Shown piece after piece: positions 11,240 to 61,967 of a stretch of DNA of 64,000 nt; within the stretch, counting starts at the first letter, position 1; every line of letters begins with the position of its first letter. This stretch comes from a bacterium (GTDB lineage: Bacteria; Lernaellota; Lernaellaia; JACKCT01): positions 595,450 to 659,449 of the forward strand of contig CAXXWT010000005.1 in NCBI GenBank assembly GCA_963674685.2, in the 5' to 3' direction. Under the pieces are notes generated by a model. The model saw nothing but the letters and a program-made list of their open reading frames with translations, ran no database searches and was not told the origin of the DNA. Made by a program: the position numbers and the translations under genes.

Positions 11240-11262
11240 GGCGATGAAAAACCGCAGAAAAT

Positions 11263-11634
11263 GGTTCTTCGAGGATTACCGTACTTCATCATGAAACGAA
11301 GAAGAAAATTATTTTTCGTCCTTGACATTGCCTTTGGGATGGAATTTTTGCTCATAGGTTTTGAAAGGACGTTTTTGATCGACGTCGCGGGCAATCCCTT
11401 CGAGATAAAAGGATTGGAAGACATGTCGACAATTCGGTGATTTATTGGCGGCTTTATCGCGGTCTCCTGACGCCCAAATTGGGAAATGTCCTTTCAAAAC
11501 CTTAAATGACGGGCTTTTCCATCCCAAAGGAAATGTCAAGGATCGACGACCGCCCTTTTGGGCGGCGAAAAATAATTTTCTTCTTCGCAAAGTTGGAGAA
11601 GTGGGCGTTAAAGTACGGTAATCCTCGAAGAACC
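11263..11634. repeat. 372-bp composite imperfect palindrome (MITE-like element or large structured RNA)
   Basis: Four block pairs match as inverted repeats. 11263-11284 pairs with 11613-11634 (22/22). 11298-11318 pairs with 11566-11586 (21/21). 11319-11344 pairs with 11517-11542 (25/26). 11357-11370 pairs with 11488-11501 (14/14). There is also a central hairpin, caatcc...ggattg. Confidence 0.8.
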
Positions 11635-11881
11635 GAAAAAATGCTTTATTCAAATACGGCGGCATCCGGCGGAAATATCAAAAATGATTCATTTCTATAA
11701 ATTTTTCACTGTGGCCAGAAACATCTTTATTTCAAGCAACTTTGATGGTATCAGGATTAGGAATTTCGAGGGATTTGGCGATGACGCCGGATCATTTGAG
11801 AAAAATAATTAATGCTTCAAATAAAAATATCAATATCAGTTTTGCAGGTTTTTAGCATGACACATCGACTGGGGGACTGGT

Positions 11882-44877: not shown

Positions 44878-45479
44878 GCCGCGTCCTCCCGATCCAGCCA
44901 GCGTTTCAAAAGCCCCAGCCCCCACGGTCCCGAAAGCTCCGGGTGAAACTGGCAGGCCAGAATCGATCCGCGCTCCATGGCGGCCACGAAGGACCCGCCG
45001 TAATCGGCCCGGGAGGCCGTCCATCCCGGCGGCTGCTCGCAAAGGCGGTAGGAGTTGGCGAAATAGGCATAGCCGGCTTGAAGCAGCGCGCATCCGGGCG
45101 TAGGCTCGGTCATGTTCCAGCCCAGTTGCGGCACGCGAAGGCAATCGGGGAAACGCCGTACTTTTTCCGGGATGATTCCAAGCCCTTCGACTCCGGGATC
45201 CTCCTCGCTGGCCGCGCAAAGAAGCTGCAGACCCAGGCATACGGCAAGCGTCGGCCGGTTTTGCGCAAACCGTTTTTGCAGCGGCTCGACCAGTCCATTT
45301 TTTTCAAGCATTTCCATTCCGGCGGCAAAAGCGCCGACGCCGGGCAAAACCGCATGCGTCGCCGCGGCGACTTCGCCGGGATCATCGCTAAAATACTCCC
45401 GGGCGCCCGCGCGGCGCAGACCGGCCACTACGGAAGCGAGATTGGCGACGCCGGTTTTAATCACCAGCACTTTTCTCAT
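44871..45479 (-). CDS. hisH: imidazole glycerol phosphate synthase, glutamine amidotransferase subunit
   Basis: Motifs are LPGVGAF, AVCLGLQLL and QFHPE. Confidence 0.9.
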   Translation of the reverse strand: MRKVLVIKTGVANLASVVAGLRRAGAREYFSDDPGEVAAATHAVLPGVGAFAAGMEMLEKNGLVEPLQKRFAQNRPTLAVCLGLQLLCAASEEDPGVEGLGIIPEKVRRFPDCLRVPQLGWNMTEPTPGCALLQAGYAYFANSYRLCEQPPGWTASRADYGGSFVAAMERGSILACQFHPELSGPWGLGLLKRWLDREDAAC

Positions 45480-47466: not shown

Positions 47467-48338
47467 GAAACGAGCTGATCCGGCGCGGTCACCACGATGT
47501 CGGCGCCGCCCCGGGCCTTGATCCTCGGGATCAGAAAAGGCAATTCATCCCTCGGCACGGCGGCCTTCACCGCGTACGCGTCCTCGCCGAAAAGCGGCGC
47601 AACGGTGGGCTTTTTCATGCACGGCAGAAGCTTCACCAGTTGATCCAGCTTATCCGCCGGAACATTGACCTCGATCATGACGCGCTTTCTGGCGTTAAGG
47701 ACCGATTCCATAAGCAGGACGAATCGCTCGATGGCTTTTTTCTTCTCCCGGTTTTTCAGGGCTTTCGGATTGGCGTAAAAACGCGTGGAGGAATGCATCA
47801 GCACATCCACGATCTCCAGGCGCGCGGCCTTAAGCGTGGTCCCGGTGGCGGTATTGTCGATGATGCAATCCGCGTCTTCCGGCGGGAAAACCTCCGTGGC
47901 CCCGTAGGAACGCACGAACGAGGCTTTCATCTTCCGTTTTTTAATCCAGGCTTTGGCGAGCTTTTCATATTCCGAAGCCACCACCAGGCGGCGCTTGGGG
48001 AGCTTGCCGTCTTTGAGAAATTCCGCGTGCGCCGCCGCCACGACGCGCACCGGATCGAGCTGCGTATCCAGCAGTTCGACCAGGTCGGCTCCGAGTTCCG
48101 CCACCCAATCCGCCCCTGCGAATCCGATGTCCCGGGAACCGAGATGCAACATCTCGACGATGTTTTGAGGTTTCAGGATTTTCGTTTCGAATCCGGGAAG
48201 GCAGACCCGCGGCCTGTAATCCCGCTGAACCCAGTCGGTCCGAATCCCCGCATCGGCCAGCAAGTTGGTCACGCCCTTCGCCATGCGGCCTTTCGGCAAT
48301 GCCAGGCGAAGCGTCGCTGAATTGTTTTTCCCGAACAT
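47463..48338 (-). CDS. hisG: ATP phosphoribosyltransferase (long form with a regulatory domain)
   Basis: Motifs are LRLALPKGRM, DIGFAGADWV and DNTATGTTLKA, plus a C-terminal HisG_C-like ~75 aa. The RBS is AAAGGGGAATCAAATG. Confidence 0.9.
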   Translation of the reverse strand: MFGKNNSATLRLALPKGRMAKGVTNLLADAGIRTDWVQRDYRPRVCLPGFETKILKPQNIVEMLHLGSRDIGFAGADWVAELGADLVELLDTQLDPVRVVAAAHAEFLKDGKLPKRRLVVASEYEKLAKAWIKKRKMKASFVRSYGATEVFPPEDADCIIDNTATGTTLKAARLEIVDVLMHSSTRFYANPKALKNREKKKAIERFVLLMESVLNARKRVMIEVNVPADKLDQLVKLLPCMKKPTVAPLFGEDAYAVKAAVPRDELPFLIPRIKARGGADIVVTAPDQLVS

Positions 48339-48360
48339 TTGATTCCCCTTTTTAAAAACG

Positions 48361-48390
48361 CAATAAAAAACCGGCTTTTTAAGCCGGCGT
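48361..48390 (-). terminator. intrinsic terminator of the his attenuator
   Basis: The minus-strand RNA reads CCGGCUU-AAA-AAGCCGG followed by UUUUUUAUU. It lies ~25 nt upstream of the hisG start. Confidence 0.7.
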
Positions 48391-48422
48391 TTTGGTTTTT
48401 GCTTGACGATCAGGCTACACCA

Positions 48423-48470
48423 TCATCCGGCCCTTTCATTGGGCGAATGGTGATGGTTATGTCGCGTCAT
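48423..48470 (-). CDS. histidine-rich leader peptide of the his operon (MTRHNHHHSPNERAG)
   Basis: The ORF reads ATG ACG CGA CAT AAC CAT CAC CAT TCG CCC AAT GAA AGG GCC GGA TGA, giving 4 His codons in 15. An in-frame ATG at 48479 would add MIR. The His-codon stretch (ACCAUCA) can pair with the downstream UGAUGGU. AAGGGCCGG at the ORF end can pair with the terminator's left arm. Confidence 0.55.
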   Translation of the reverse strand: MTRHNHHHSPNERAG

Positions 48471-48485
48471 ACGAATCATGAGCAA

Positions 48486-48514
48486 AATCTATGGCTTTCG
48501 TAATATTTTGTCAA
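48486..48514 (-). promoter_or_regulatory. candidate sigma70-type promoter of the his leader
   Basis: On the minus strand, TTGACA (48514-48509) is followed by a 17-nt spacer and TAGATT (48491-48486). The leader ATGs lie just downstream. Confidence 0.4.
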
Positions 48515-48667
48515 TCTGAAAGCGGGTTTTTCAATTCTCCGCGATCCGGGCTTACGCTTTGAGCGCTCCGATGGTTCATTTCAAGGTTGATAAATTCATT
48601 CCCATCAGATATTAGGTCAAATGTCACGTTTCTTTATAAATTTCCTTGAATTTAACGAGGAACTCAG

Positions 48668-49666
48668 TTGAAAAAAATTGTCATTACGGGAAGCGCCGGA
48701 TTTATCGGATTTCATCTTGCCAAAAGATTTCTGGATGAAGGGCGCGAGGTCGTCGGCCTCGATAATTTCAACGATTACTATCCGAAAGAGATCAAAAAGC
48801 AGCGCGACGCGATTTTGCGCGAAAATCCTCGTTTCATCTCACGACACGTCGATATCGCCGACACCGCTTCAATTGAAAAAGTTTTCAAGGAATTCGAGGT
48901 CGATCTCATCGTCAATCTCGCGGCGCAGGCCGGCGTCCGCTACGCGCGGATCAACCCCATGGCTTACGTGCGGTCCAACCAGGTGGGATTTGCCAATATT
49001 CTCGAAATGGCGCGCCATCACGGCGTCAAACGAATTTTATATGCCTCGTCATCTTCGGTCTACGCCGGCGTCAAGGAGACGCCCTTTCGCGAGGATCAGC
49101 CCGTGGACCGGCCTATCAGCCTTTACGGCGCCACGAAGAAATCCAATGAACTGGCCGCGCACTGCTACACGCATCTATACGGCATACAGACCATCGGCCT
49201 GCGTTTTTTTACGGTTTACGGTCCATGGGGAAGGCCGGATATGGCCATGTGGATTTTTGCGGAAAAGATGCTGGCGGGCGAGCCCATACCGGTTTTCAAT
49301 TACGGCGACATGCGCCGGGATTTCACGTACATCGACGACATTGTGGACGGGGTGGCCCGGCTGTCTTTCGCCGAAGGGCTTAAACCCTATGAGATTATGA
49401 ACATCGGCAATCACCGAAGCGAAAAGCTCATGGACCTCATCGACCTGATCGCAAAAGGCCTGGGCGTGGACGTGAAATGCAACATGCTTCCCATGATGCC
49501 CGACGACGTTCCGGCGACCTATGCTTCCATCGAGCGGATCAACAAGGCCTGCGGCTTCGAGCCCAGAACCACGATCTCAGAAGGCGTCCCCAAATTTTTG
49601 GAATGGTACCGGGCTCATCCCGATCTGGCCGAAATCGTAAAAAACTGGCGGGACAAGTCAAAGTAA
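48668..49666 (+). CDS. NAD-dependent epimerase, UDP-glucuronate 4-epimerase-like
   Basis: TTG start after GAGGA. Motifs are ITGSAGFIGFHL, GLDNFNDYY, YGATKKSNE and RFFTVYGPWGRPDMA. Confidence 0.8.
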   Translation: MKKIVITGSAGFIGFHLAKRFLDEGREVVGLDNFNDYYPKEIKKQRDAILRENPRFISRHVDIADTASIEKVFKEFEVDLIVNLAAQAGVRYARINPMAYVRSNQVGFANILEMARHHGVKRILYASSSSVYAGVKETPFREDQPVDRPISLYGATKKSNELAAHCYTHLYGIQTIGLRFFTVYGPWGRPDMAMWIFAEKMLAGEPIPVFNYGDMRRDFTYIDDIVDGVARLSFAEGLKPYEIMNIGNHRSEKLMDLIDLIAKGLGVDVKCNMLPMMPDDVPATYASIERINKACGFEPRTTISEGVPKFLEWYRAHPDLAEIVKNWRDKSK

Positions 49667-49697
49667 ATCAAGGCTGTGCTCGGGGAAGAAGAAACCT

Positions 49698-49757
49698 CTC
49701 CTGCACAGCCGGGGGCGGCTGTGCCACACACGATCTGCCCGGGCGAAATATTTCACC
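49698..49757. repeat. dispersed hairpin repeat, copy B (CACAGCC-N-GGCTGTGCCACAC...AAATATTTCA)
   Basis: Copy B aligns with 16335-16392. The stem is cacagccg/cggctgtg. It runs directly into the 14-mer array. Confidence 0.7.
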
Positions 49758-49826
49758 TTTCACCTTGCCCCTTTCACCTTGCCCCTTTCACCTTGCCCCT
49801 TTCACCTTGCCCCTTCACCTTGCCCC
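49751..49826. repeat. tandem array of a 14-bp unit TTTCACCTTGCCCC (two 7-bp half-units), 4 perfect copies plus a 13-mer and a leading half-unit
   Basis: Units lie at 49758-71, 49772-85, 49786-99 and 49800-13, with a 13-mer at 49814-26. The array ends on the first base of the cysC stop codon. On the minus strand it reads (GGGGCAAGGTGAAA)n. Confidence 0.9.
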
Positions 49827-50428
49827 TATATATAACCCAGGTCTTTCAAGCGTTTCTTGATCTTCGCTTCTTCTTCCTCGCTGTACTGCGCGCCGTCCAG
49901 CTTTTCGAGATAACCGAGAATTTCCAGAGTCTGAATGATCCTGTCATGGCTTTGCTCGGGAGTTTCATTCGCCGTATCCACGCGAATTTCCGCGTCTTCC
50001 GGCGGTTCATAGGGATCACTGACGCCGGTGAAGTTTTTGATTTCGCCCGCCAGGGCTTTTTTGTACAGGCCCTTGGGATCGCGTTCTTTTAGAACATCAA
50101 TAGGGCAGTCCACGAAAACCTCCACGAATCGCCCGATCAATTTGCGGTTTTGATCCCGGATGGCTTTGTAAGGACTGATGGCCGCGGCGACGGCGATCAC
50201 ACCGTTTCGCGTCAGCAGATTGCAGACGTATCCGATCCGCAAAATGTTGATGTCCCGGTCTTCCTTGGAAAAAGAAAGGCCTTTGCTAAGGTTGGTGCGC
50301 ACTTCGTCCCCGTCGAGGACTTCGACGTTCAGCCCGCGCTCTAACAACGTTTCCTCGACCATTTCCGACAGCGTCGATTTTCCCGATCCCGATAATCCCG
50401 TGAACCATAAAGTAAATCCTTTTCTCAT
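49826..50428 (-). CDS. cysC: adenylyl-sulfate (APS) kinase with a ~25-aa C-terminal extension
   Basis: Motifs are [24 protein letters not shown] and FVEVFVDCP. The extension reads [23 protein letters not shown]. Confidence 0.9.
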
Positions 50429-50438
50429 CGCTTAACTC

Positions 50439-51830
50439 CTATTGATTCTTTTCAATGATGGATGTTCCGATCATGTCCTCGGGCACGTCCAGATCAAAAT
50501 AGTCGAGGATGGTCGGGGCAATGTCGTAAATCGAATATTTATCGCACTTCGTCGTCTTCTGGCCTTCGGGAAGGCTCAGGATGAAAATGCCGTTGTAATC
50601 GTGGTTGGCGTCGTCGGGGCCGGTGTCGTTTTCAAAGATATGAATTTCCCCGGTTCCGATCTGCGCGGCGCTGCGCCAATTGAGATCGCCGAAATAAACG
50701 ATCAGATCCGGCGCGACGTTTTTCACTTCCCTGTACAGATTCTCCGGGCGATGCACGACGGTGCCGATGTTCTCGCCCTTCTCGTCGACGATTCCCTCAA
50801 AGTCTTTTTGAAGCTGATCCCGGAATGCGTCATAATCATCGGATTCGATCACGCCCTGCGGCTCGCGGCCTTTGACGTTGATAAAAATGCGGCTGTAATA
50901 ACCGCCTTCGCCCCAGACTTTGGTTCGCGACCAGTCGATCATGTCGTTTTTCAATCGTCCCGGCTCTTTGGGCTCTTCCTTCAAGACCAGGTAGCCTTTT
51001 TGGATCAGCCACTCGTTGATGCAGATGGCGCCGACCATGGATTTCGCGCCGTGATCCGACACGACCATGACCGCGGTTTCGTCATCCAGAACCGCCAGCA
51101 GTTCACCGATTCGCTCGTCGAGGTATTTGTAGTAATCCCGGATGGCGTATCGATACTTGGAATCGGATTCGTGCAGGCGGTGGTTTTTCGCGTGGTAGCG
51201 CCAGAAGCCGTGATGGATGCGGTCCACGCCCATTTCCACCATCATGTAAAACTCGTGCTCGCCCTTTTTCAGCGCATCGAGAAAAACCTTGAAGCGCCGC
51301 TCGGTCATCTCGTAAATCTGATCGAGCAGCCAATCCTTGTCATTGGTGCGAAATTTCCGCACGTCGATCACGTAATCGCCCCCGGCGGCCTTGTCGATCA
51401 GCGCGGCGGCTTCCGGCGGGGACGTCCATTGCACGTCCTTGCTCGGCGCCAGGAAACTGCTGACCAGCACGCCGCGCAGTGGTTTCGGCGGGTAGGTCTG
51501 CGGCACGCCGAGAATGAAGCTGGAAAGGCGCTTGCGTGACAGATAATTCCAAACGCGTTTTTCTTTCACGTAATCGTTGTTGGCGAAAAACAGGTCGTCG
51601 TAGCCGTGATCGGCGCGGTTGCGGAATCCGTAAAAGCCGAGCTGCCCCGGGTCCTTGCTCGTCATCATGGCGGTCCACGCCGGAACCGTGATGGGAGGAT
51701 CGGTGCTGCGCAGAGGCGCGTAATGCCCCCGGTCCATCAGGCTCTTCAAATTCGGGAGGATCGACGCGAATTCATCGAACACCAGCGTCGGTTCGGCGCA
51801 ATCCAGACCGATAACGACCATTTTTTTCAT
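50439..51830 (-). CDS. alkaline-phosphatase-superfamily protein, type I phosphodiesterase/nucleotide pyrophosphatase-like (paralogue A, no signal peptide)
   Basis: Motifs are VVIGLDCAEP, PPITVPAWTAMMTSKDPGQLGFYGF, DRIHH and VVSDHGA. Confidence 0.75.
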   Translation of the reverse strand: MKKMVVIGLDCAEPTLVFDEFASILPNLKSLMDRGHYAPLRSTDPPITVPAWTAMMTSKDPGQLGFYGFRNRADHGYDDLFFANNDYVKEKRVWNYLSRKRLSSFILGVPQTYPPKPLRGVLVSSFLAPSKDVQWTSPPEAAALIDKAAGGDYVIDVRKFRTNDKDWLLDQIYEMTERRFKVFLDALKKGEHEFYMMVEMGVDRIHHGFWRYHAKNHRLHESDSKYRYAIRDYYKYLDERIGELLAVLDDETAVMVVSDHGAKSMVGAICINEWLIQKGYLVLKEEPKEPGRLKNDMIDWSRTKVWGEGGYYSRIFINVKGREPQGVIESDDYDAFRDQLQKDFEGIVDEKGENIGTVVHRPENLYREVKNVAPDLIVYFGDLNWRSAAQIGTGEIHIFENDTGPDDANHDYNGIFILSLPEGQKTTKCDKYSIYDIAPTILDYFDLDVPEDMIGTSIIEKNQ

Positions 51831-51885
51831 AATTCACTCCCTTGATTTAATGACAGTCGAAAATGTTGAATTTTGCAAAAAGCGT

Positions 51886-51992
51886 GTCATTCCGACCGGA
51901 GCGAAGCGTAGTGGAGGAATCCCTTCAAGAAAAACGAACCGGTTGCTTAAAGGGATTCCTCGACTCGCCCTGACGGGCTCGCTCGGAATGAC
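51886..51992. repeat. GTCATTCCGA...GGAATCCC palindromic repeat between the RHH gene and AP paralogue A
   Basis: The left arm gtcattccgaccggagcgaagcgtagtggaggaatccctt (51886-51925) faces the right arm aagggattcctcgactcgccctgacgggctcgctcggaatgac (51950-51992). Confidence 0.8.
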
Positions 51993-52034
51993 ATTGCGTT
52001 GGTCTTTCAATCGGTGCATTTATCGACAGCCTCT

Positions 52035-52259
52035 TTACAGATACCCGAGATTTTTCAGCCGCTTCTTGATGGCGGCGATCTCCTCAGCGGTCAATTCCTC
52101 GGCGGCTTTATCACTTCGCCCTTCGCTCATTTTCTCGCTCACCAGGTCACGCAGAACGTAAACGATGAACTCCGTCGGGCTGGAAAAGCCCGAATCCCCT
52201 ACGATCACGCGGATTTTATCATAAAGTTCGCGCGGGATTTTGATCGTCACTTTGCTCAT
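52035..52259 (-). CDS. small ribbon-helix-helix (CopG/Arc-like) protein with an acidic linker and a KKRLKNLGYL tail
   Basis: MSKVTIKIPRELYDKIRVIVGDSGFSSPTEFIVYVLRDLV fits a beta-alpha-alpha RHH. The tail reads AEEIAAIKKRLKNLGYL. Confidence 0.6.
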   Translation of the reverse strand: MSKVTIKIPRELYDKIRVIVGDSGFSSPTEFIVYVLRDLVSEKMSEGRSDKAAEELTAEEIAAIKKRLKNLGYL

Positions 52260-52361
52260 AAAGCACTCCTATAAGGCTCCAGATAGGCTCTGATTGGAGT
52301 GTACGCTTCGATAAATGCCTTGTCAACGCGAAAAAAGGAGGAAGGAGAAAATATGATGGAG

Positions 52362-52691
52362 GAAGGAAGAAGGAGGAATTCGGAATAGAGCCCGCCAGGG
52401 CGGCATAATTCAGCCCATCAGGGTGACAGAACAGAGCCGCGCACGAAGCCGCGCCGCCAGGCGCGGCGAGAGTAAGCGGGTAAATAGCAGCCCTGCGAAA
52501 GCGTCGGACTCAAGTCGTGATTCAATTCAGCACGTAAAGGCGACGCAATTCAGCCTGAAGGGCGTTATAATATCAGCCCCGGGCGTCAGCGCAGGGGATA
52601 AAGGGATTCCTGGGCATCAACTTTGCGCTGATGGGGCAACCCCCATGCAAACGGGCACAGGAGTCCGCCCTTTATTCCTCCTTCTTCCTTC
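52362..52691. repeat. inverted-repeat-bounded GC-hairpin-rich element in the divergent intergenic region
   Basis: A perfect 18-bp IR is present: gaaggaagaaggaggaat (52362-52379) faces attcctccttcttccttc (52674-52691). The interior contains several GC stems, e.g. gccgcgcc-gcca-ggcgcggc and agcccgcca..ggcggc, the latter also found at 18195-18216. Confidence 0.75.
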
Positions 52692-52694
52692 ATA

Positions 52695-52738
52695 TTTCAT
52701 CCTTTCATCTTGCCCCTTTCGCCTTGCCCCTTTCCCCT
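52695..52738. repeat. degenerate copy of the TTTCACCTTGCCCC array ~30 bp upstream of AP paralogue B
   Basis: The sequence reads tttcatcc tttcatcttgcccc tttcgccttgcccc tttcccct. Confidence 0.75.
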
Positions 52739-52769
52739 TAAACAATTATCCTGACAAATCTTCGATCTC

Positions 52770-54083
52770 ATGGAGATGAACATGGGAATTTTTTCGCGAA
52801 AGAAAACCAAGGCGATGGTGGTCGGGCTGGACGGCGTTCCGCATACGCTGCTCACCGACCTGATGGAAAAGGGCGTGATGCCCAACATGAAAAAGATCAC
52901 CGCGGCGGGCAATCTGCGCCAGATGGAAGTCACTGTGCCGGAAATATCGGCGGTGAGCTGGCCCAGCTTCATGACCGGCGTCGATCCGGGAACTCACGGC
53001 ATCTTCGGCTTTTCCGAACTGCGTCCCAACACATACGACATGTTTTTTCCCTGCTACAGCGACTTAAAAGCGCCGGCGATCTGGGACACGTTGGAAAAGG
53101 ACGGCAAGCGCTCCGTGGTTTTGAATCAGCCCGGCACGTACCCCGCCCGCCGCATAAACGGCGCGCTGGTTTCCGGATTCGTGGCCATCGAACTTCACAA
53201 GGCGGTTTTTCCGGCCAAATACATCGGAAAACTGCGCCGCCTCGATTACGAAATCGACATCGACACAAGCCGCGCCCGCGACAATCATAAATTCGCCATG
53301 CAGGATCTGGAGCGCACGCTGGAAGGACGCGTCAAGGCGGCGCAGCTTCTATTGGAGCAGGAGCAGTGGGACTTTTTCGAGGTCGTGGTGACCGGCACGG
53401 ACAGGCTGCATCATTATTTATGGCACGCGCTGGTCGATGAGAACCACGAGTTGCATGAAAAAGCGATCGATTATTACCGTAGCGTCGATAAATTCGTCGG
53501 GCAAATGGCCGACGCCTACGCACGGGCCGCAAAAGACGATTCCTTGGGCGGCTTTTTCATGCTCAGCGACCACGGATTCTGCGCTTTGGAAAAGGAAGTC
53601 GCCCTGACGCGCTACCTGGTCGAAACCGGTCTGATGGCTTTCGAGACCGACGCGCCGGAGCAACTGGGCCAAATCAGCGAATCCTCGAAGGTGCTGGTCA
53701 TGGACCCGAACCGCATCTACGTTCATCGAAAAGACAAATTTCCCAAAGGCGGCGTCGACGCGGCGGATGTCCCCAAGGTGATTGAAGACACGAAAGCCGC
53801 TCTTGAAGAACTTACGTACGACGGCAAGAAGCTGGTGCGCCGGCTCTTCGACCGGGAGGAAGCTTTCCACGGCCCGCTGGCCGGCCAGGGGCCCGACCTT
53901 GTGGCCGTGTCCATCGATGGATTCGACTTCAAAGGCGGCGTGGACCGCTCCGAGGTTTTCGGACATTTCGGCCTGTCGGGTATGCACAATCAATATGACG
54001 CTTTTTTGTGGACCACGAAATCCGTGAACGAGATTCCGCAAATCACGCAAGCGGCGGGGCTGATTCTCGATCATTTACGTTAA
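52770..54083 (+). CDS. alkaline-phosphatase-superfamily protein, type I phosphodiesterase/nucleotide pyrophosphatase-like (paralogue B, cytoplasmic)
   Basis: Motifs are MVVGLDGVPH, VPEISAVSWPSFMTGVDPGTHGIFGF, TDRLHH and MLSDHGF. The start is ambiguous among ATGs at 52770, 52776 and 52782. Confidence 0.75.
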   Translation: MEMNMGIFSRKKTKAMVVGLDGVPHTLLTDLMEKGVMPNMKKITAAGNLRQMEVTVPEISAVSWPSFMTGVDPGTHGIFGFSELRPNTYDMFFPCYSDLKAPAIWDTLEKDGKRSVVLNQPGTYPARRINGALVSGFVAIELHKAVFPAKYIGKLRRLDYEIDIDTSRARDNHKFAMQDLERTLEGRVKAAQLLLEQEQWDFFEVVVTGTDRLHHYLWHALVDENHELHEKAIDYYRSVDKFVGQMADAYARAAKDDSLGGFFMLSDHGFCALEKEVALTRYLVETGLMAFETDAPEQLGQISESSKVLVMDPNRIYVHRKDKFPKGGVDAADVPKVIEDTKAALEELTYDGKKLVRRLFDREEAFHGPLAGQGPDLVAVSIDGFDFKGGVDRSEVFGHFGLSGMHNQYDAFLWTTKSVNEIPQITQAAGLILDHLR

Positions 54084-54256
54084 GTTCCATGCATAAACTG
54101 ACATTTCAATTCGCCACAGCCGCGAAATGACCCCATCTTTCCTTTGAGGCAATAAGTTTGCCTGCTTGTTATCGGCCCAGGGTAATCATAGCTTGCTTGA
54201 TACCGCCGTACCGAAAGAGTATTGTCTGTTTCGTCGCAATATTGGCGAGGCTTTTT

Positions 54257-56365
54257 ATGCGAAAAATTACTCGATTCACCCTGCTTGTCACCGCGCTGCT
54301 GCTCGTCGCAACGCCGGCTTACGCGTACGTCGGCCCCGGCGCCGGTTTCGCTTTTATCACGAGCTTCTTTTTCCTGATCGCCACCTTTTTTGTCGCCCTT
54401 TTTTCGGTCATGATCTGGCCGATTCGCTTTCTGTTTATCTGGCTGCGCCGGCGGCGTGCGCTCAAAAACGCCAAAGTCAATAGAGTTGTGGTTCTGGGAC
54501 TGGACGGCATGGATCCGGATCTTACGGAGAAATGGATGGCCGAAGGCCACCTGCCGAATTTCAAAGCGCTTTCGGAAAAGGGGAGTTTTTCCCGGCTGCA
54601 AACCACGTATCCCGCGGTCAGCCCCGTCGCCTGGTCAAGCTTCATGACCGGCGCCAATCCGGGGCGGCACAGGATTTACGATTTTCTTTCCCGGGATAAA
54701 AACACTTATCTACCCACGTTGTCGTCCGCCTATATCGGCAACGCAAAAAAGACCATCAAACTGGGAAAATACCGAATCCCCGTCGGCAAGCCGGATATCC
54801 GCCTCCTGCGTAAGAGCAAGCCCTTCTGGGTCGTCCTGAGCGATCATGGCGTGCGCTCTTCGATTTTGCGCGTTCCCATCACTTTTCCGCCGGACAAATT
54901 CAAAGGTGTGCAGCTTTCGGGCATGTGCGTGCCGGATCTGCTGGGCAGCCAGGGGACGTTCAGCTTTTTCACGACCCGCGCCATCGACATGGGCGACGAC
55001 GCCGAAGGCGGCGTCGTTTTGCCTTTAACAAAAAGCGGCAAGGAATACCTGGGCGAAATCAAGGGACCGCCCAATTCGCTGGTGGAAGGCTCGCCGGACA
55101 TGATTCTGCCGTTCAAACTGAGCAAGGGCAAAAACGGCGCTTGCAAACTGACGCTTCCCGACAAAACCTACTGGCTTGAAGTCGGTAAATTTTCCGGGTG
55201 GTTGCCGGTGAAATTCAAAGCCGGCCTGGGAATCAAAGTTTCGGGCATCGCGCATTTCCTCGTCACCGAGTTCGGCGATGAAGTCAGCCTCTATGTGACG
55301 CCGATCAATTTGGATCCGGAGCGCCCGGCCTTTCCCATCACCAATCCGCCGGCCTATTCCATGTACCTGGCCAAGCAGATCGGCCCGTACGCCAATTTGG
55401 GGCTGGCCGAGGACACGTGGGTTCTCAACGAAGGTTTGCTGACCGACGACCAGTTCCTCAAGGAATGCGAATTGATCCACGAGGAACGGGAGCAAATGTT
55501 TTTCGACGCGCTGGAGAAAACTCGGAGCGGCGTGGTCGTTTGCGTGTTCGATGATACGGACCGGATACAGCACATGTTCTTCCGCTACCTCGAAAAGGAC
55601 CACCCGGCCCTTTCCCATTACCCGGAAAGCGACCGCAAGGACGCGATCCTCGATCTTTACAAAAAGACGGACGTCATGCTCGGGCGCGTGATGAACCAGA
55701 TCAAAAAGGACGACGCCTTTTTCGTGATGAGCGACCATGGATTCAAGCCGTTCGTCCGCGGCGTCAACCTCAACACCTGGCTTCACCAAAACGGCTATCT
55801 GGCTCTTAAACCCGACAGCAAAAAAGGCAAGTGGCTGTCAAACGTCAACTGGGAAAACACCCGCGCCTATCAGGTCGGCCTCGGCGGATTTTATCTGAAC
55901 CTCAAAGGCCGCGAGGCCAAAGGCATCGTCGAGCCTGGCGCGGAAGCCGAAGCGCTGATCCGGGAATTGATCGAAAAACTGACGAACCTGCCCGATGAGG
56001 AGAGGTCCGAGATCGGCATCAACGACGTCTGGGCGGCCACAGACATTTACAAGGGCCCCTACGTGGGCGAGGCGCCGGACCTGATCATCGGATATAACGT
56101 CGGATATCGCGCGGGTTGGGACGGCGTCACGGGCGTCATCACGGACAAGGTCTTCGACGACAACGTCAAAGCCTGGAGCGGCGATCACTGCATGGATCCC
56201 CGAAAAGTCCCCGGCGTATTGTTTTCAACTTCGAAAATAACAAAAGACTCCCCGTCGATCATGGATATCGCCCCGACAGTCCTGGGGCAGCTCGGCGTCA
56301 AAAAGCCCGGGTACATGGACGGCGAATCACTTATGGAGCAAGGTTCCAAGGAGGCGGTCTCATGA
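54257..56365 (+). CDS. alkaline-phosphatase-superfamily protein (paralogue C) with an N-terminal two-helix membrane hairpin
   Basis: MRKITRFTLLVTALLLVATPAYAYVGPGAGFAFITSFFFLIATFFVALFSVMIWPIRFLFIWLRRRR is followed by VVLGLDGMDP, YPAVSPVAWSSFMTGANPGRHRIYDF and MSDHGF. Trimmed to the ATG at 54257. Confidence 0.75.
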   Translation: MRKITRFTLLVTALLLVATPAYAYVGPGAGFAFITSFFFLIATFFVALFSVMIWPIRFLFIWLRRRRALKNAKVNRVVVLGLDGMDPDLTEKWMAEGHLPNFKALSEKGSFSRLQTTYPAVSPVAWSSFMTGANPGRHRIYDFLSRDKNTYLPTLSSAYIGNAKKTIKLGKYRIPVGKPDIRLLRKSKPFWVVLSDHGVRSSILRVPITFPPDKFKGVQLSGMCVPDLLGSQGTFSFFTTRAIDMGDDAEGGVVLPLTKSGKEYLGEIKGPPNSLVEGSPDMILPFKLSKGKNGACKLTLPDKTYWLEVGKFSGWLPVKFKAGLGIKVSGIAHFLVTEFGDEVSLYVTPINLDPERPAFPITNPPAYSMYLAKQIGPYANLGLAEDTWVLNEGLLTDDQFLKECELIHEEREQMFFDALEKTRSGVVVCVFDDTDRIQHMFFRYLEKDHPALSHYPESDRKDAILDLYKKTDVMLGRVMNQIKKDDAFFVMSDHGFKPFVRGVNLNTWLHQNGYLALKPDSKKGKWLSNVNWENTRAYQVGLGGFYLNLKGREAKGIVEPGAEAEALIRELIEKLTNLPDEERSEIGINDVWAATDIYKGPYVGEAPDLIIGYNVGYRAGWDGVTGVITDKVFDDNVKAWSGDHCMDPRKVPGVLFSTSKITKDSPSIMDIAPTVLGQLGVKKPGYMDGESLMEQGSKEAVS

Positions 56366-58362
56366 ACCGCGAATTAAAATATCTGATTATCGCGACGGCG
56401 CTGGTCATGCTGCTCGCCGGCGGCTGTGGTTCCGGCAAAAGCGCCCCGGCAAACGGCGAGGCCAAAGTCATGGTTCTGGCCTTTGACGGCCTCGACCCGA
56501 TCCTTCTCAATCAATGGATGGACGAGGGCGCTTTGCCCAATTTCGTCAAACTGAAAAAGGACGGCGATTTCAAAAAGCTGGGAACTTCGATCCCCCCGCA
56601 AAGCCCCGTGGCCTGGTCCAATTTCATTACCGGCCAGAATCCGGGCGGACACGGGATTTTCGATTTCATTCACCGGGATCCCAAGACCTATCTGCCGTTT
56701 TTATCCACCACGAAAACGCAGGCTCCGGAAAAATTCTGGAAACTCGCGGGCTATCAAATTCCCGTGGACGAAGGCAGCGTCACGTTGATGCGCCAGGGCA
56801 AAGCCTTCTGGCAATACCTTGCCGACGCCGGCGTGCCGGCCACCATTTTCTCCATTCCCAGCAACTATCCGCCGGTCGAAGGACCGTTTCGCTCGATATC
56901 CGGCATGGGAACGCCGGATCTGATGGGCGGCTACGGAAGCTTTTCCTATTTCACGGACGACCCGACGATTCCCAAAGAGGGCGAAGAGGTCACCGGCGGA
57001 CAGGTTTACCAGGTCTCGGTGGACAATGGAGAACTCAAAGCGGCGATTACGGGTCCGAAAAATACATTTAAAGTCGTCCCCGAGGGCGAATATCCGCCCG
57101 ACAGCACCGTCAAATTCACCGTCCACATCGATCCGGAAAACGACGCGGCGACGATCGATATTTCCAGGCAGCGCATCCTCCTGAATCGCGGCGAATGGTC
57201 CGACTGGGTGGGGATCGAATTCGAGATGATCCCCTACGCGGTTTCCGTCAAAGGCATCGTCCGGTTCCTATTGAAAAGCGCGCACCCGCACATCGGTCTT
57301 TACGTGTCCCCCATCAATATCGATCCGCGTGATCCGGCCCTGCCGATCAGCACGCCTCCCGAATATGCGCAGGAACTGGCGGATGTCGAGGGAGGTCCGT
57401 TCTACACGCAGGGCATCCCTGAAGACACCAAGGCTTTATCCCACAACATTCTGACCAACGAGGAGTTTTTGCAGCAGGCCCATACCGTTTTGTCCGAGCG
57501 GCTCAAGCTCTATGATTACGAGCTATATCGCTTCCAACGGGGATTTCTGTTTTTCTATTTCTCTTCTTCCGACCAGCTCACGCACATGTTCTGGCGCACC
57601 ATGGACCGCAATCACCCGGCTTATGATCCGGAAAAAGACGCCGCCTATCAGGGAGTGTTGAAAGACACCTACATGCGGATGGATAAAATCCTGGGCAAAG
57701 CCATGGACAAATTGGGCGACCAGGACGTTCTGATGGTGATGAGCGACCACGGCTTCGCTCCCTTCTACAAGTCGTTTCATCTGAACTCATGGCTTTTGGA
57801 AAACGGGTACGTTCAACTGCGTGACCCTGATGATCGAAGCGCAGATTTTCTCATGAACGTCAACTGGTCCGGCACCAAGGCCTATGCCCTGGGGATCAAC
57901 GGGCTTTATCTGAACCTGGGGGGGCGGGAAAGAATGGGCGTGGTTCCGGTTCACAGGGCCGACGCGCTGCTGGATGAGATATCCAATAAGCTCCTCGAAG
58001 TCGTCGATCCGGAAAACGGGAAAAAGGTCATCGCCAAAGTCTACAAAACCTCCGAAGTGTATAAGGGGCCCTATAAAAACCTGGCGCCGGATCTGATCAT
58101 CGGCTACGCGCGCGAATATCGCGGAAGCTGGCAAACCGCGCTGGGCAACTTCCCGGAAGGCGCGCTGATCGTTCCGAACAAAGATGAATGGAGCGGCGAT
58201 CACTGCATGGCGGCGGAAGTGGTCCCCGGAAGCCTGCTGGCCAATCGGCCGGTCAAATTGTCCGATCCGAAGCTGTACGATTTGCCCGTGACGATTCTGG
58301 AGCTGTTCGGTATCGAGCGTCCCAAGGATATGATCGGACACAATATATTTACCGGCAAGTAA
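56362..58362 (+). CDS. alkaline-phosphatase-superfamily lipoprotein (paralogue D)
   Basis: There is an ATGA overlap with paralogue C. The signal peptide has lipobox LLAGGC. Motifs are MVLAFDGLDP, IPPQSPVAWSNFITGQNPGGHGIFDF and MSDHGF. Confidence 0.75.
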   Translation: MNRELKYLIIATALVMLLAGGCGSGKSAPANGEAKVMVLAFDGLDPILLNQWMDEGALPNFVKLKKDGDFKKLGTSIPPQSPVAWSNFITGQNPGGHGIFDFIHRDPKTYLPFLSTTKTQAPEKFWKLAGYQIPVDEGSVTLMRQGKAFWQYLADAGVPATIFSIPSNYPPVEGPFRSISGMGTPDLMGGYGSFSYFTDDPTIPKEGEEVTGGQVYQVSVDNGELKAAITGPKNTFKVVPEGEYPPDSTVKFTVHIDPENDAATIDISRQRILLNRGEWSDWVGIEFEMIPYAVSVKGIVRFLLKSAHPHIGLYVSPINIDPRDPALPISTPPEYAQELADVEGGPFYTQGIPEDTKALSHNILTNEEFLQQAHTVLSERLKLYDYELYRFQRGFLFFYFSSSDQLTHMFWRTMDRNHPAYDPEKDAAYQGVLKDTYMRMDKILGKAMDKLGDQDVLMVMSDHGFAPFYKSFHLNSWLLENGYVQLRDPDDRSADFLMNVNWSGTKAYALGINGLYLNLGGRERMGVVPVHRADALLDEISNKLLEVVDPENGKKVIAKVYKTSEVYKGPYKNLAPDLIIGYAREYRGSWQTALGNFPEGALIVPNKDEWSGDHCMAAEVVPGSLLANRPVKLSDPKLYDLPVTILELFGIERPKDMIGHNIFTGK

Positions 58363-58373
58363 AGGAGAGTTTT

Positions 58374-58565
58374 ATGTTCGGACCGAAAGTAAAATTGGAA
58401 AAGGAACTTTTCGAACGCGTGAAAAAATTTGCCGGCCGGGCCGGTTATTCTTCGGTGGAGGAATTCGTCAGCCATGTGCTGGAAAAGGAACTGGCGCAGA
58501 TCGACGAAGGCGAAAGCGAAGAGGAAATCAAGAAGAAACTCGCGGGACTCGGTTACATCAGCTAA
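58374..58565 (+). CDS. small ribbon-helix-helix protein, paralogue of 52035-52259, with a KKKLAGLGYIS tail
   Basis: The RBS is AAAGGAGAG. The protein reads MFGPKVKLEKELFERVKKFAGRAGYSSVEEFVSHVLEKEL...GESEEEIKKKLAGLGYIS. Confidence 0.6.
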   Translation: MFGPKVKLEKELFERVKKFAGRAGYSSVEEFVSHVLEKELAQIDEGESEEEIKKKLAGLGYIS

Positions 58566-58577
58566 AGGACGCTAAAC

Positions 58578-59399
58578 ATGCTGAGAATTTCCAATGCGTT
58601 GGGATTTGTTTTCAAAGGCGTGATGGCTCCTTTCCGGTCGCTTCCCCTGACCGGAATGGTCGTCATCAGCGTGCTGACCGGCGTGCTGATGCTGATCATC
58701 TATAAATATACGTCCGACCAAAAGGGCATCACCGGCGCAAAGAATAAAATCAAAGCGAACTTTTTGGCGATCATGCTGTTTTCCGACAGTTTCATCGTTC
58801 TGCTGAAATCCATCGGGCGTATATTGCGGTGGAATCTTGTTTATATGGGCCACAACCTGCGCCCGCTGGCCGTGATGATCGCGCCGGTTCTTCTCCTGCT
58901 TGTGCAACTGAATTTCTGGTACGGCTATCGCCCGGTCGAGGTCGGAGAATCCGCTCTGGTGAAGGTCAAAACCGCCCGAAACGTGGATTTATCCTCAACG
59001 GACGCGGTGCTGGAAGCTCCCGAAGGCGTTACGGTCGAAACGCCCGCCGTCCGGGCGCCCCAAACGGGCGAAGTCACATGGCGCGTCGCCGGAGCCAAAG
59101 AAGGCGCCTATAACCTGATCGTTAAAATCGGCGATGAATTGAAAGAAAAGCGCGTTGTTGTCGGACCGCCTTCGAAGCTTCATGCGTTAGCGCCCCTGCG
59201 CCATAACGGCAATTTTGCCGACGGGCTTTTATATCCCGGGGAAAAGAAACTCACCGGATCCATCCGCTCGATCAGCGTTCAATACCCTGAAGTCAAAATG
59301 AATTTCTTTGGCTGGCATACTCACTGGATCATCGTTTACTTCATTCTTTCCATCGTCGCCGGACTGGGCATGAAGGGACTGTTCAAGGTCGACATTTAA
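58578..59399 (+). CDS. membrane protein of unknown function (N-terminal TMs, central beta-rich domain, C-terminal TM)
   Basis: 273-aa ORF 12 nt after the RHH gene. It has hydrophobic segments at both ends and no recognisable catalytic motif. Confidence 0.55.
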   Translation: MLRISNALGFVFKGVMAPFRSLPLTGMVVISVLTGVLMLIIYKYTSDQKGITGAKNKIKANFLAIMLFSDSFIVLLKSIGRILRWNLVYMGHNLRPLAVMIAPVLLLLVQLNFWYGYRPVEVGESALVKVKTARNVDLSSTDAVLEAPEGVTVETPAVRAPQTGEVTWRVAGAKEGAYNLIVKIGDELKEKRVVVGPPSKLHALAPLRHNGNFADGLLYPGEKKLTGSIRSISVQYPEVKMNFFGWHTHWIIVYFILSIVAGLGMKGLFKVDI

Positions 59400-59504
59400 C
59401 GGACAGCAACGATATATATTACCGGTGCACCATGTCGATTGTCGCGAGGCCGTTGTGCGTCGATATTGGATTCCACTAAACGTATTGAATCATGAAGTGG
59501 AATG

Positions 59505-61967
59505 TCAGCCGATAATCCATCCGACAAACTTGCGTAGCCAGGAACTTCTTTTTTCTTTTCCTTCGCCGTATCCGTAACCGTAACCGTACCCGTATTTATG
59601 GTCATAGCCCTTTTCTTCGCCGCCATAGCTATATCCGTCGCTTCCATATCCGTACCCGTATCCATAGCCGTATTTTTTACCGTATCCATACGACCGGTAG
59701 CGGGAAGCGCCTGTGCCCGTGGAAACCCGGTTAAGAATAATTCCCTTGATATCCGCGTTGACTTTTTGCATATGAGACAGCAATTGCGTCAAGGAATGCC
59801 CCTGTGAACGGCCCGATCGAACGACAATGTAAACGCCGTCCACCCAGGAAGACAATACAATCGGGTCGGCGAACAGCATGCCCGGAGGCGAATCCAGAAT
59901 CACGTAACGGTAACCGGCCTTGTCCGCCTTTTCCTGGAGAAGTTTTTTCATTTCATCCGAACTGAGAATTTCCGCCGGGAAGTTCGTGGTTTTTCCCGCG
60001 GTCATCACGTCCAGATTGGGCTGGAGATCCTTGTGGATGACTTCTTCGAGAGTCGCCTCGCCGGTCAGCACCTCGACAAGACCGATCGAGGTCTCGATAT
60101 CAAGCTTCTGTTCCTTGTGCAGGCGCGGATAGCGAAGGTCGCAGTCGATGAGCAAGGTTCTCTCGCCGCTGGCTCCCAGGGCGACGGCAAGGTTCATGGA
60201 TGTCGTGGATTTGCCCTCGCCGGGAAGCGGGCTGGTCATGAGGATGCGCCAGATATCCGTTCCCCTGGCCGTGAATCTGACATGCGCCCGTAAGAGCCCC
60301 GTTGCCTCGGCCAGGGGCGACTTAAACTCGGTCTGGCGACTTAAGGCCAGATCTTCGGATTGAACCTGTGGAATTGTCGTCACCACCGGGATTCCGTATT
60401 TTTGTTCGAGCTTGTCGGGGCTGGTGATCGGATCGATTTGATAATCTACATATATCGCGATAGCAATTCCCGACATCATTCCCATCATCATGCATATTAA
60501 AACAATCAGTTTCTTTCTGGGTTTGATCGGCCATCGAGGAGCTTCCGCGGGATCGATAATCGTGACATTGCTGACGACTTGGGCTCTGCGAATTCTTGCT
60601 TCCTCGTACGATTTGAGCAGGAAGAGGTATAATTCAGCGTTCACCGTCGAAGTTCTCGCCAAAGCCGCCAGTTGGCGTTCGGTCTCGGGGAGATCCTTCA
60701 GCTTATCCTCATATTTGACGATCAGCTCTTCGATGGTTTTCATTTCTTCGTTGATGGGCTCTAAAGCGTTGTCGATAATCTGGCTGATGCGGCTTTTCAT
60801 GGCGTCAATCTGAGTTTCCAGACTCTGAATCTTCACGTTTCCCTGGGCTAATTCACTGCTCAATGTATCCAAATTCACCATGGCGTCGGAAAGCTGCTTC
60901 ACCATGCCGGTCAGCACATCGTCGGAATAACTTGATAGATCCGCCAGTAAATAGCGACTGATTGATCCGCTTTTCAAGCTCAGACGGACGGCCAGGACGG
61001 ATTGCTTTTTAATTTCAAGATCGCTTTTTTTAATTTCCAGGCGTGAAATCTCGTTAATCAGCACCTTGGCCTCGTCCTGAAGAAGAAACACTCCTTTTTC
61101 GCTTTTATATTCGTTAAGAGCTTTCTCGCCGTTTTCCAGATTGTCGCGAATCACCGCCAGTTGCGTTTCCAAAAACTCCATCGTCTGACTGGCTTCCTTG
61201 CCCAACTCCCGGATGTTTCTATCGATATAAGCCTGGGTCAAGGCATTGGCGATGTCCCGGCTTCTTTCCGAACTTGGATTGAGCACGTTGACAAACAGCA
61301 CATCGCCTTTCGACAAGGCGCCCAGCCCCGCCACTTCGATGGCTTGCCGGAAATAAGTGACGGCGCTCTCCATGGTGACGCGGGTGATTTTAAGAACTTC
61401 ACTGAAATCCGGGTTCTCGGCGGCAATTAATATATCGACCAGCGGCGATTGAATCTGCTGTCCCAGTTTGGCTTGACCCAAAGGACCGAAATCATTGGAT
61501 TCCAGTTCATATTCGCCATTTTTAAAGTTAACGGTAACCACTTCATTGATCAGTTCGTCGGAAAACGACAAACGTTCGAATTCCAAGGCGTATTTTTCTT
61601 TGAGTTTCTCAAAGTTATCGCTGTAGGCATAGTTTAACTTGAGCTTTTCCACCACTTCCTGAACCAGCGTCCGACTCGACAGGATAATCCTTTCCCGATC
61701 GATTGCGGATCTTTTCATTCCACCAAAACCTACGCCGAGATCGGTGAAATCCATTGCTCCGCTGTATTCATCGATGGAAATAATGGCCGTGGCCTGATAT
61801 GCTTCCTGCATAAAAAAGACACTGATGACGCCAATGCATGCAGCCAGAAAGGTTATGGCGGCGATAAGCCGCCACCGACGCATGATAACGCCGGCGATGG
61901 TGTCGAGGCGAAAAAGATCGCTTTCGAGGATGGAAGACTGCGGGGATGGGGGCAGAGTATTATTCAT
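59505..61967 (-). CDS. polysaccharide co-polymerase/tyrosine autokinase (Wzc/GumC-like, PCP-2a) with a (GY)n tail
   Basis: An N-terminal TM plus Wzz-like coiled-coil periplasmic domain is followed by a second TM. The BY-kinase Walker A is PLPGEGKSTTSMNLA. The C-terminal tail is Tyr-rich. Confidence 0.85.
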   Translation of the reverse strand: MNNTLPPSPQSSILESDLFRLDTIAGVIMRRWRLIAAITFLAACIGVISVFFMQEAYQATAIISIDEYSGAMDFTDLGVGFGGMKRSAIDRERIILSSRTLVQEVVEKLKLNYAYSDNFEKLKEKYALEFERLSFSDELINEVVTVNFKNGEYELESNDFGPLGQAKLGQQIQSPLVDILIAAENPDFSEVLKITRVTMESAVTYFRQAIEVAGLGALSKGDVLFVNVLNPSSERSRDIANALTQAYIDRNIRELGKEASQTMEFLETQLAVIRDNLENGEKALNEYKSEKGVFLLQDEAKVLINEISRLEIKKSDLEIKKQSVLAVRLSLKSGSISRYLLADLSSYSDDVLTGMVKQLSDAMVNLDTLSSELAQGNVKIQSLETQIDAMKSRISQIIDNALEPINEEMKTIEELIVKYEDKLKDLPETERQLAALARTSTVNAELYLFLLKSYEEARIRRAQVVSNVTIIDPAEAPRWPIKPRKKLIVLICMMMGMMSGIAIAIYVDYQIDPITSPDKLEQKYGIPVVTTIPQVQSEDLALSRQTEFKSPLAEATGLLRAHVRFTARGTDIWRILMTSPLPGEGKSTTSMNLAVALGASGERTLLIDCDLRYPRLHKEQKLDIETSIGLVEVLTGEATLEEVIHKDLQPNLDVMTAGKTTNFPAEILSSDEMKKLLQEKADKAGYRYVILDSPPGMLFADPIVLSSWVDGVYIVVRSGRSQGHSLTQLLSHMQKVNADIKGIILNRVSTGTGASRYRSYGYGKKYGYGYGYGYGSDGYSYGGEEKGYDHKYGYGYGYGYGEGKEKRSSWLRKFVGWIIG

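Follow-up and report, generated by a model that had tools for sequence, protein, structure and literature searches.

The window analysed here is a stretch of 64,000 nt from a bacterium of the Lernaellota (assembly GCA_963674685.2, contig CAXXWT010000005.1, forward-strand positions 595,450 to 659,449), and positions below count from its first letter. It carries four genes, A, B, C and D, for PF01663 proteins of the alkaline phosphatase (AP) superfamily, together with cysC for adenosine 5′-phosphosulfate (APS) kinase, genes for two small proteins, R63 and R74, and one for a membrane protein, M273. The module is so far undescribed in Pfam, NCBIfam, PADLOC and the searchable literature, and its components come from known superfamilies. 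A previous account of this DNA, made from its letters and here called the sequence-only reading, had rightly listed A to D and cysC; it overlooked R63, R74, M273 and a shared C-terminal tail, GLGY, all of which are members of the system.

Genes and products of the module

The four enzymes lie at 50439-51830 (A, minus strand, 463 aa), 52770-54083 (B, plus strand, 437 aa), 54257-56365 (C, plus strand, 702 aa) and 56362-58362 (D, plus strand, 666 aa). An alternative start of B, the ATG at 52782, may be the true one. The C stop and the D start overlap as ATGA, as had been read earlier, with an AAGGAGG site upstream. Scores against PF01663 are 152.5 bits for A, 128.5 for B, 122.6 for C and 118.9 for D, all far over the gathering threshold of 23 bits, and the motifs quoted in the sequence-only reading are present and align. 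The nucleophile is Thr48 in A and Ser60, Ser122 and Ser81 in B, C and D, in the context [ST]-x-[PV]-[AS]-W. All seven catalytic positions of the AP superfamily, six metal ligands and the nucleophile (first Asp, Thr/Ser nucleophile, D..H, DH, last His), are identical in the four proteins. Alignments made family by family show no variation at them among 124 A, 12 B and 70 D sequences; for the C family, five are invariant in 203 sequences and the remaining pair, D493/H494, in 21. Since the catalytic residues are kept throughout the families, A to D all look like active enzymes under selection.

Mutual identity among A, B, C and D is 26-38%, while their orthologues in other phyla reach 50-78% (60-78% for A). 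C and D, at 38%, have in common an insertion domain that is about 200 aa long and beta-rich. B is 74% identical to its Lernaella orthologue, and the Lernaella copy likewise lies upstream of C. Orthologues occur in Acidobacteriota, Planctomycetota, Gemmatimonadota, Calditrichota, Schekmanbacteria, Lernaellota and other phyla. Low mutual identity set against high identity across phyla means that, as judged by these comparisons, A to D are four old orthologous families and not recent paralogues.

Protein searches with C and with A each gave at least 8,000 candidates, nearly all at E <= 1e-10, and database names for the relatives of A to D are only 'alkaline phosphatase family protein', 'nucleotide pyrophosphatase' and 'AlkP superfamily phosphohydrolase/phosphomutase'. 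NCBIfam has no equivalog for A to D; with its models for PhnA, cofactor-independent phosphoglycerate mutase and sulfatase, whose cut-offs are 330-481 bits, they reach 18-27. Single-sequence searches found no relative of A or D in the PDB, and an exact-sequence look-up found no record of D. With the C-family profile, PDB matches were confined to two segments, a C-terminal one in a sulfatase and the N-terminal end of PhnA. When C was modelled with AlphaFold2 (predicted local distance difference test, pLDDT, 77.9), its closest folds were found in Xanthomonas nucleotide pyrophosphatase/phosphodiesterase (NPP), PhnA, ENPP1 and PafA at 12-13% identity; for NPP and PhnA the matches have E-values of 5e-11 to 4e-10 and a TM-score of about 0.6 normalised to the target.

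Several known identities were tried and rejected. PhnA (TIGR02335) and cofactor-independent phosphoglycerate mutase (TIGR01307) reach 21-27 bits against cut-offs of 407 and 330. The motif C/S-x-P-x-R of type I formylglycine sulfatases (PF00884) is absent, and A alone gives a PF00884 match, whose 24.4 bits fall short of the cut-off of 25. Transferases of the EptA/LtaS/OpgB type do not fit C, with its two N-terminal helices and predicted cytoplasmic PF01663 domain, or D, a predicted lipoprotein. None of A, B, C, D, R63, R74 and M273 has a PADLOC match to known anti-phage defence (e.g. PglZ-containing BREX).

A and B have no hydrophobic segment, as had been read earlier (their top 15-residue Kyte-Doolittle means are 1.60 and 1.47), and both are predicted to be soluble and cytoplasmic. 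C begins with two hydrophobic helices that have AYVGPGAG between them and RRRR after them; the loop AYxGPGAG is invariant in the C family. In the AlphaFold2 model a helix at residues 2-17 and the loop are followed by an unbroken helix, 27-70, running into the catalytic domain. Lys and Arg residues number three ahead of helix 1, zero in the loop and six beyond helix 2, a distribution by which the catalytic domain should be cytoplasmic. Hydropathy, charge and model all agree with the membrane hairpin put forward in the sequence-only reading, and C is predicted to be membrane-anchored with its catalytic domain on the cytoplasmic side. An A-x-A directly ahead of the loop could double as a signal-peptidase site, the layout being procoat-like in both cases.

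D has the lipobox LLAGGC claimed for it: its N-terminus, MNRELKYLIIATALVMLLAGG-C22, has Cys22 after the hydrophobic segment 4-24. Nearly all D homologues (n = 65) carry either a signal peptide followed by Cys or a twin-arginine translocation (Tat) signal, RRxFLK, in agreement with export, and D is predicted to be an exported lipoprotein. Among loci that carry B (L004, L029, L034, L067, L075, L079), D homologues often have the RRxFLK signal, which replaces the lipobox or stands alongside it. The earlier proposal that the four enzymes go to different compartments thus holds as far as a spread over compartments is concerned; with A and B in one compartment, the predicted locations are three, not four.

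CysC (49826-50428, minus strand) matches PF01583 with 206.7 bits (cut-off 21.1) and has the P-loop GLSGSGKST. Its gene starts 10 nt past the end of A on the same strand. R74 (52035-52259, minus strand, 74 aa) heads this R74-A-cysC unit, preceded by a promoter-like site, TTGACA-17-TACACT, and a palindrome (together 52264-52326, minus strand). R63 (58374-58565, plus strand, 63 aa) lies between D and M273, and R74 is its paralogue. Both score under the PF01402 RHH_1 cut-off of 20.5 bits (R63 12.9 bits, E 0.11; R74 14.8 bits, E 0.029), and R74 orthologues match the CdrS model with E-values of 9e-5 to 1e-3, far under its cut-off; from their sequences, R63 and R74 look like ribbon-helix-helix (RHH) proteins. 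R74 orthologues stand directly upstream of the ATP sulfurylase gene, sat, or of A in L084, L085, L087 and many metagenome loci. R63 has 392 representative clusters in a library of 1.8 billion proteins. Where R63 seemed fused to larger proteins (P0307, P0322, P0323, P0326), the cases were set aside, since they look like read-through or start-codon artefacts.

The R74 palindrome (52264-52301, minus strand; CACTCCAATCAG...CTTATAGGAGTG) spans two signals of R74, its -10 element and its ribosome-binding site. L084 keeps the palindrome (RNA fold -24.9 kcal/mol, z -6.5), and L085 and L087 have a weaker form; it could serve as an operator for an RHH protein or as a hairpin masking the ribosome-binding site. 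Two arms of 46 nt (52334-52379 and 52674-52719) also lie in the divergent region between R74 and B, at a distance of 294 nt; one is rich in purines and the other in pyrimidines, and they are complementary at 78%. No RNA family was found from 48000 to 60000 (Rfam, E <= 0.1).

CysC has a C-terminal extension with the same kind of tail as R63 (...SEEEIKKKLAGLGYIS) and R74 (...EEIAAIKKRLKNLGYL, ...IKKRLKNLGYL), and these three are the only open reading frames (ORFs) of the window to end so. The tail consensus on CysC and both RHH-like proteins is ...SEEE[IV]KK[RK]L.GLGY[IL]x. GLGY is invariant in all 157 of 157 R63-family tails, and a tail of this type is also found on the A-linked cysC products of L005, L009, L071 and L084-L089. 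Beyond CysC and the RHH-like proteins it occurs on 13 of 37 exported Thr-type proteins of the sulfatase family, on a membrane protein of 97-99 aa and on a cytosolic sulfatase-like protein (L086). A similar sequence, ...LE.LGY[IL], forms the last helix native to APS kinase. The tail common to R63, R74 and CysC is probably a docking peptide, or could be a site of tyrosine modification.

M273 (58578-59399, plus strand) is a three-transmembrane protein. As a single sequence it has no Pfam match; of its relatives, 13 of 38 match PF01956 (EMC3/TMCO1), the best with an E-value of 7.7e-6, and the family profile matches the archaeal YidC-like MJ0480 (PDB 5c8j) with an E-value of 1.1e-9 over the first transmembrane helix (TM1), the coiled coil and TM2. 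The AlphaFold2 model (pLDDT 91) has a helix at 23-45, helices at 48-67 and 72-115, and a helix at 250-264, laid out as TM1, a cytoplasmic coiled-coil hairpin, TM2, an immunoglobulin (Ig)-like domain predicted to be periplasmic, and TM3; segment 45-95 contains eight Lys/Arg against two Asp/Glu. By profile comparison M273 is a member of the DUF106/Ylp1 branch of the Oxa1 superfamily with an added Ig-like domain. The DUF106 architecture consists of three transmembrane helices and a coiled coil, and the family is described as archaeal and eukaryotic (PMC5868721).

Conservation and linkage to sulfate activation

A scan of one genome per species found C encoded in at least 584 genomes, and 80 loci were taken with 10-kb flanks. 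C-centred counts below refer to these 80 species genomes, unless loci of at least 15 kb (n = 50) are stated. Of these 50 longer loci, 48 have D, 49 have R63 and 49 have M273: C-D-R63-M273 is a near-universal core. Its order in Terriglobia is D-R63-M273-C. B occurs in 11/80 loci, and in several of them the B stop overlaps the C start.

The link to APS kinase is stronger than the sequence-only reading had claimed. A cysC gene lies within 10 kb of the core in 16/80 loci, where about 0.5% would be the expectation if the gene were single-copy and the genome 4 Mb in size, and 33/80 loci have at least one gene for sulfate activation, sulfate uptake or sulfotransfer. Recurrent neighbours of the core were defined by clustering and checked with Pfam. 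Those for activation and uptake are cysC, single or fused (Sat::CysC, CysN::CysC), CysD and sulfate ATP-binding cassette (ABC) transporter genes; those for use of 3′-phosphoadenosine 5′-phosphosulfate (PAPS) are a CysQ-type phosphatase, a sulfotransferase of about 200 aa (PF13469/PF00685) and a PHP-domain protein. The small classical sulfotransferase stands beside the core in 17/80 loci, mostly adjoining C; it has no close solved relative, its top match being SULT1A (E 0.007). The commonest neighbours are exported sulfatase-family proteins (25/80 loci), in which TxPSH replaces the formylglycine motif. Genes for GT2 and GT4 glycosyltransferases and for methyltransferases are occasional neighbours; a sulfite reductase or CysH cluster is absent among the recurrent ones. 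Minimal loci read Sat::CysC - CysQ - sulfotransferase - C - D - R63 - M273.

In seven loci the PHP-domain protein is encoded behind M273 or A (L001, 15221-16069; L003, 15374-16234; L004, 15954-16805; L119; L135; L155; L168), and the window lacks such a gene. The protein's top NCBIfam match is 3′,5′-nucleoside bisphosphate phosphatase, at 212.7 bits against a cut-off of 400. Sat, CysQ and the small sulfotransferase are likewise missing from the 64-kb window, as judged by tblastn with their relatives. The absence of sulfotransferase and ATP sulfurylase genes noted in the sequence-only reading therefore stands for the window; for the sulfotransferase it is specific to the lineage, as the C-centred counts show.

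A and B were surveyed by exact-sequence look-ups and in an A-centred metagenome set of 80 loci. Sat is encoded directly upstream of A in 24 of the 57 loci with room to see it, and in 24 of 63 the gene immediately after A is cysC. Behind cysC comes B in 21 of the 80 A-centred loci. Four contigs encode Sat::A fusions as single ORFs (L009, L116, L126 and L131, with L126 and L131 85% identical). In L087 (Candidatus Schekmanbacteria) the genes R-Sat-A-CysC-B-C-D-R63-M273 form an unbroken row on one strand, by which the four paralogues are linked in distant lineages, and the order Sat-A-CysC-B-...-C-D is found in L089, L095, L122 and L139. The earlier suggestion that the four enzymes serve one pathway gains from this recurrence of A-CysC-B-C-D across phyla; scattered, unlinked paralogues in relatives were looked for as a sign to the contrary, and linkage was found instead.

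B and the small sulfotransferase, in 11 and 17 loci, have zero overlap among the 80. A as a replacement of CysQ, i.e. a phosphatase for 3′-phosphoadenosine 5′-phosphate (PAP), was rejected: A is found alongside CysQ (L082, L110) and alongside the PHP-domain phosphatase (L119, L135, L155, L168).

Other features were seen in related loci. L089 has, between B and C (10433-12634), a 733-aa fusion of a NifS-like aminotransferase with a SelD-like (AIRS) domain. Many soil-type metagenome loci (L120, L128, L132, L141, L144, L146) have tandem A-like genes, of about 490 and 570-610 aa, and no adjoining cysC.

The flanks of the module within the window are as follows. Wzc (59505-61967, minus strand) and Wza, identified as such in the sequence-only reading along with cysC, are confirmed. 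The tyrosine cluster of Wzc is an unusually long run of GY repeats at its C-terminal end (...YGYGKKYGYGYGYGYGSDGYSYGG...KYGYGYGYGYGEG...). Upstream, a histidine operon (42851-44125 and 44122-45240, both minus strand) has HisA and HisIE within one ORF, and its ORF for HisF is extended by about 120 aa at the N-terminal end. For three consecutive large ORFs, 35805-37175, 37284-39341 and 39474-41525 (all minus strand; 456, 685 and 683 aa), Pfam gives nothing at E <= 1e-5; GT2 and methyltransferase genes adjoin them.

A candidate pathway and its alternatives

We lean, by somewhat more than an even chance, towards reading the locus as a PAPS-coupled pathway of ester transfer or ester hydrolysis that spans the inner membrane; the module probably makes or processes a sulfated component of the envelope. 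The sequences themselves show which genes are there, their intact active sites, their conservation, linkage and fusions; topology, substrates and the part played by each protein are inferred, and our confidence in any one role is much lower than in the pathway as a whole. The first unit, R74-A-CysC (with Sat in relatives), would synthesise PAPS, and the Sat needed for this would be encoded elsewhere in the genome. A would be a cytoplasmic two-metal esterase of NPP type, the AP-superfamily branch to which PF01663 corresponds, functionally coupled to ATP sulfurylase, and may remove a by-product, most plausibly pyrophosphate (PPi), to draw the unfavourable activation of sulfate forward. PPi is the first guess since some eukaryotes have ATP sulfurylase fused to inorganic pyrophosphatase (PMC2275785).

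The second unit would be B-C-D-R63-M273. B, cytoplasmic and often translationally coupled to C, may act at or shortly past the PAPS-consuming step, where it would fill the position that the classical sulfotransferase of about 200 aa has in other lineages; the finding that the two never share a locus is weak evidence for this. The identity of C and D, their common insertion and their opposite membrane faces suggest a shared reaction, transfer or hydrolysis of a phospho- or sulfo-ester, which C would carry out at the inner and D at the outer face on a single membrane-bound substrate. M273 might insert or hold the C hairpin, or supply a route through the membrane. The Oxa1 superfamily is known to act on simple membrane proteins whose translocated regions are small (PMC5868721), and the C loop of 7-9 residues fits that description. 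R63 and R74 would be regulators or adaptors.

Several points weigh against this pathway. The main weakness is chemical: NPP-type enzymes with a Ser/Thr nucleophile are catalysts of phosphoryl transfer, and we know of no efficient sulfuryl transfer by two-metal Ser/Thr chemistry. The A to D families, R63 and M273 have no characterised member in NCBIfam, the PDB or the searchable literature, and every substrate is therefore a guess. In roughly one half of the long loci, sulfur genes are absent inside 10 kb. Chance would give about 2.3 overlaps between B and the small sulfotransferase, and phylogeny confounds their exclusivity. The co-occurrence of A with CysQ and with the PHP protein means that A is not simply a PAP phosphatase. 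The topology of A, B, C and D is drawn from hydropathy, charge and AlphaFold2 only. Foldseek with the M273 model matched the Ig-like domain only, so that the DUF106/Oxa1 assignment rests on sequence profiles.

A bolder version, which we consider unlikely, is a relay of activated sulfate through the cytoplasmic membrane. At the inner face, B and C would charge either a lipid carrier or the invariant tyrosine of a GLGY tail with sulfate from PAPS (or with a phospho-sulfo headgroup); the C hairpin and M273 would provide the crossing; and D, with the exported Thr-type sulfatase-family proteins, would deliver the group to envelope targets outside. If true, Ser/Thr enzymes of the AP fold would act as sulfuryl (or phosphosulfate) transferases, sulfation would take place outside the bacterial cytoplasm, and a bacterial DUF106 protein would have been recruited for a job besides general protein insertion.

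The PAPS-coupled pathway has three competitors. One is scavenging of sulfur or phosphorus, in which the enzymes are hydrolases of organic esters, from which they free sulfate or phosphate; A, B and C would work inside the cell, D and the exported sulfatase-family proteins outside it, and the proximity of sulfate genes would be explained by a single starvation regulon. The sulfate ABC transporter genes that adjoin the core in Terriglobia loci would suit such a role, as would the high frequency of exported sulfatase-family neighbours, and a Sat::A fusion could feed freed sulfate into activation. We find it improbable: the classical sulfotransferase and the PAP phosphatases beside the core consume PAPS or serve its use and are not assimilatory, sulfite reductase and CysH clusters do not recur there, the nucleophiles are Ser/Thr and not the formylglycine CxPxR of real sulfatases, and the invariant C hairpin, the DUF106 protein and R63 are left unexplained.

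A second competitor, nucleotide housekeeping only, has A to D, as pyrophosphatases of NPP type, degrading ATP, APS, PAPS, PAP or cyclic nucleotides on either side of the cell boundary with no dedicated sulfated product. The solved folds closest to C (Xanthomonas NPP, ENPP1 and PhnA) and the family name, with some of the database names, 'nucleotide pyrophosphatase', speak for it, yet an APS or ATP hydrolase fused to ATP sulfurylase would be a futile cycle, the periplasm, site of D, has no PAPS, identity to NPP is just 12-13%, and the C-D-R63-M273 architecture with its adjoining sulfotransferase is unexplained; we give this account a low probability.

The last, decoration of a polysaccharide exported by Wzc and Wza, is the specific form of what the sequence-only reading called plausible and is now very improbable: the two genes lie 100 bp downstream on the opposite strand, an NAD-dependent epimerase gene adjoins cysC and some related loci have the GT2, GT4 and methyltransferase genes mentioned above, but Wza occurs in 0/80 loci, the sole 'Wzc' match (L003, 26% identity) is a P-loop ATPase of the ParA/MinD family, minimal loci lack any glycosyltransferase or export gene and the upstream neighbours in the window are the histidine operon, so that this unconserved neighbourhood gives no evidence for that polysaccharide as target.

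Significance and comparison with known systems

Through comparative evidence, sulfate activation becomes the first functional lead for these 'alkaline phosphatase family' proteins, and the species genomes that encode C span many poorly studied phyla. A sulfated envelope component, if true, would be a widespread and unrecognised trait of environmental bacteria, and if A does assist ATP sulfurylase, the unfavourable thermodynamics of sulfate activation would have been solved in a new way. An Oxa1 protein of DUF106 type in a bacterium, tied to one enzyme pair, bears on the evolution of membrane insertases. The short GLGY tail common to CysC, small RHH proteins and exported enzymes is new.

NodPQ/NodH and the mycobacterial CysDNC-CysQ-Stf system are bacterial loci for PAPS-dependent sulfation. 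They resemble the present loci in that Sat or CysDN, CysC, a PAP phosphatase and often a classical sulfotransferase are encoded together. We know of no described sulfation locus with an NPP-like pair on two membrane sides, a DUF106 protein, an RHH protein with a GLGY tail or a fusion of an AP-family protein to ATP sulfurylase.

NPP of Xanthomonas axonopodis and PhnA share with the four enzymes PF01663 and a two-metal site with a Thr/Ser nucleophile, and they are the best fold matches of the C model; they differ by their low identity and in that here C and D have the beta-rich insertion, the context is PAPS-linked and C is predicted to be anchored on the cytoplasmic face. EptA/MCR, LtaS, OpgB and BcsG are likewise membrane-attached Ser/Thr metalloenzymes, and their transfer of phospho-headgroups to envelope targets is a plausible model for D and its exported neighbours. 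Those enzymes, however, belong to PF00884, with five N-terminal transmembrane helices, a periplasmic domain and lipid-headgroup donors, whereas here the family is PF01663, C, with its two-helix hairpin, is predicted to face the cytoplasm, and there is a link to PAPS.

The ATP sulfurylase-inorganic pyrophosphatase fusions of stramenopiles and haptophytes (PMC2275785) resemble Sat::A in that a hydrolase is fused to ATP sulfurylase, an arrangement interpreted as drawing the unfavourable reaction forward; A has the AP-superfamily fold and not that of a family I or II pyrophosphatase, and PPi hydrolysis by A is putative. The pairing of YidC with M13 procoat, and Ylp1 (MJ0480), offer a likeness for M273 and C together, M273 having the three-transmembrane core with a coiled coil, and the N-terminus of C (a signal-like helix, a very short loop and an anchor helix) resembling the simple hairpin substrates of this superfamily. 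Unlike Ylp1 and other DUF106 proteins, M273 is bacterial, contains an Ig-like domain as an insertion and always has the same two enzymes encoded along with it, in which setting it is a putative insertase.

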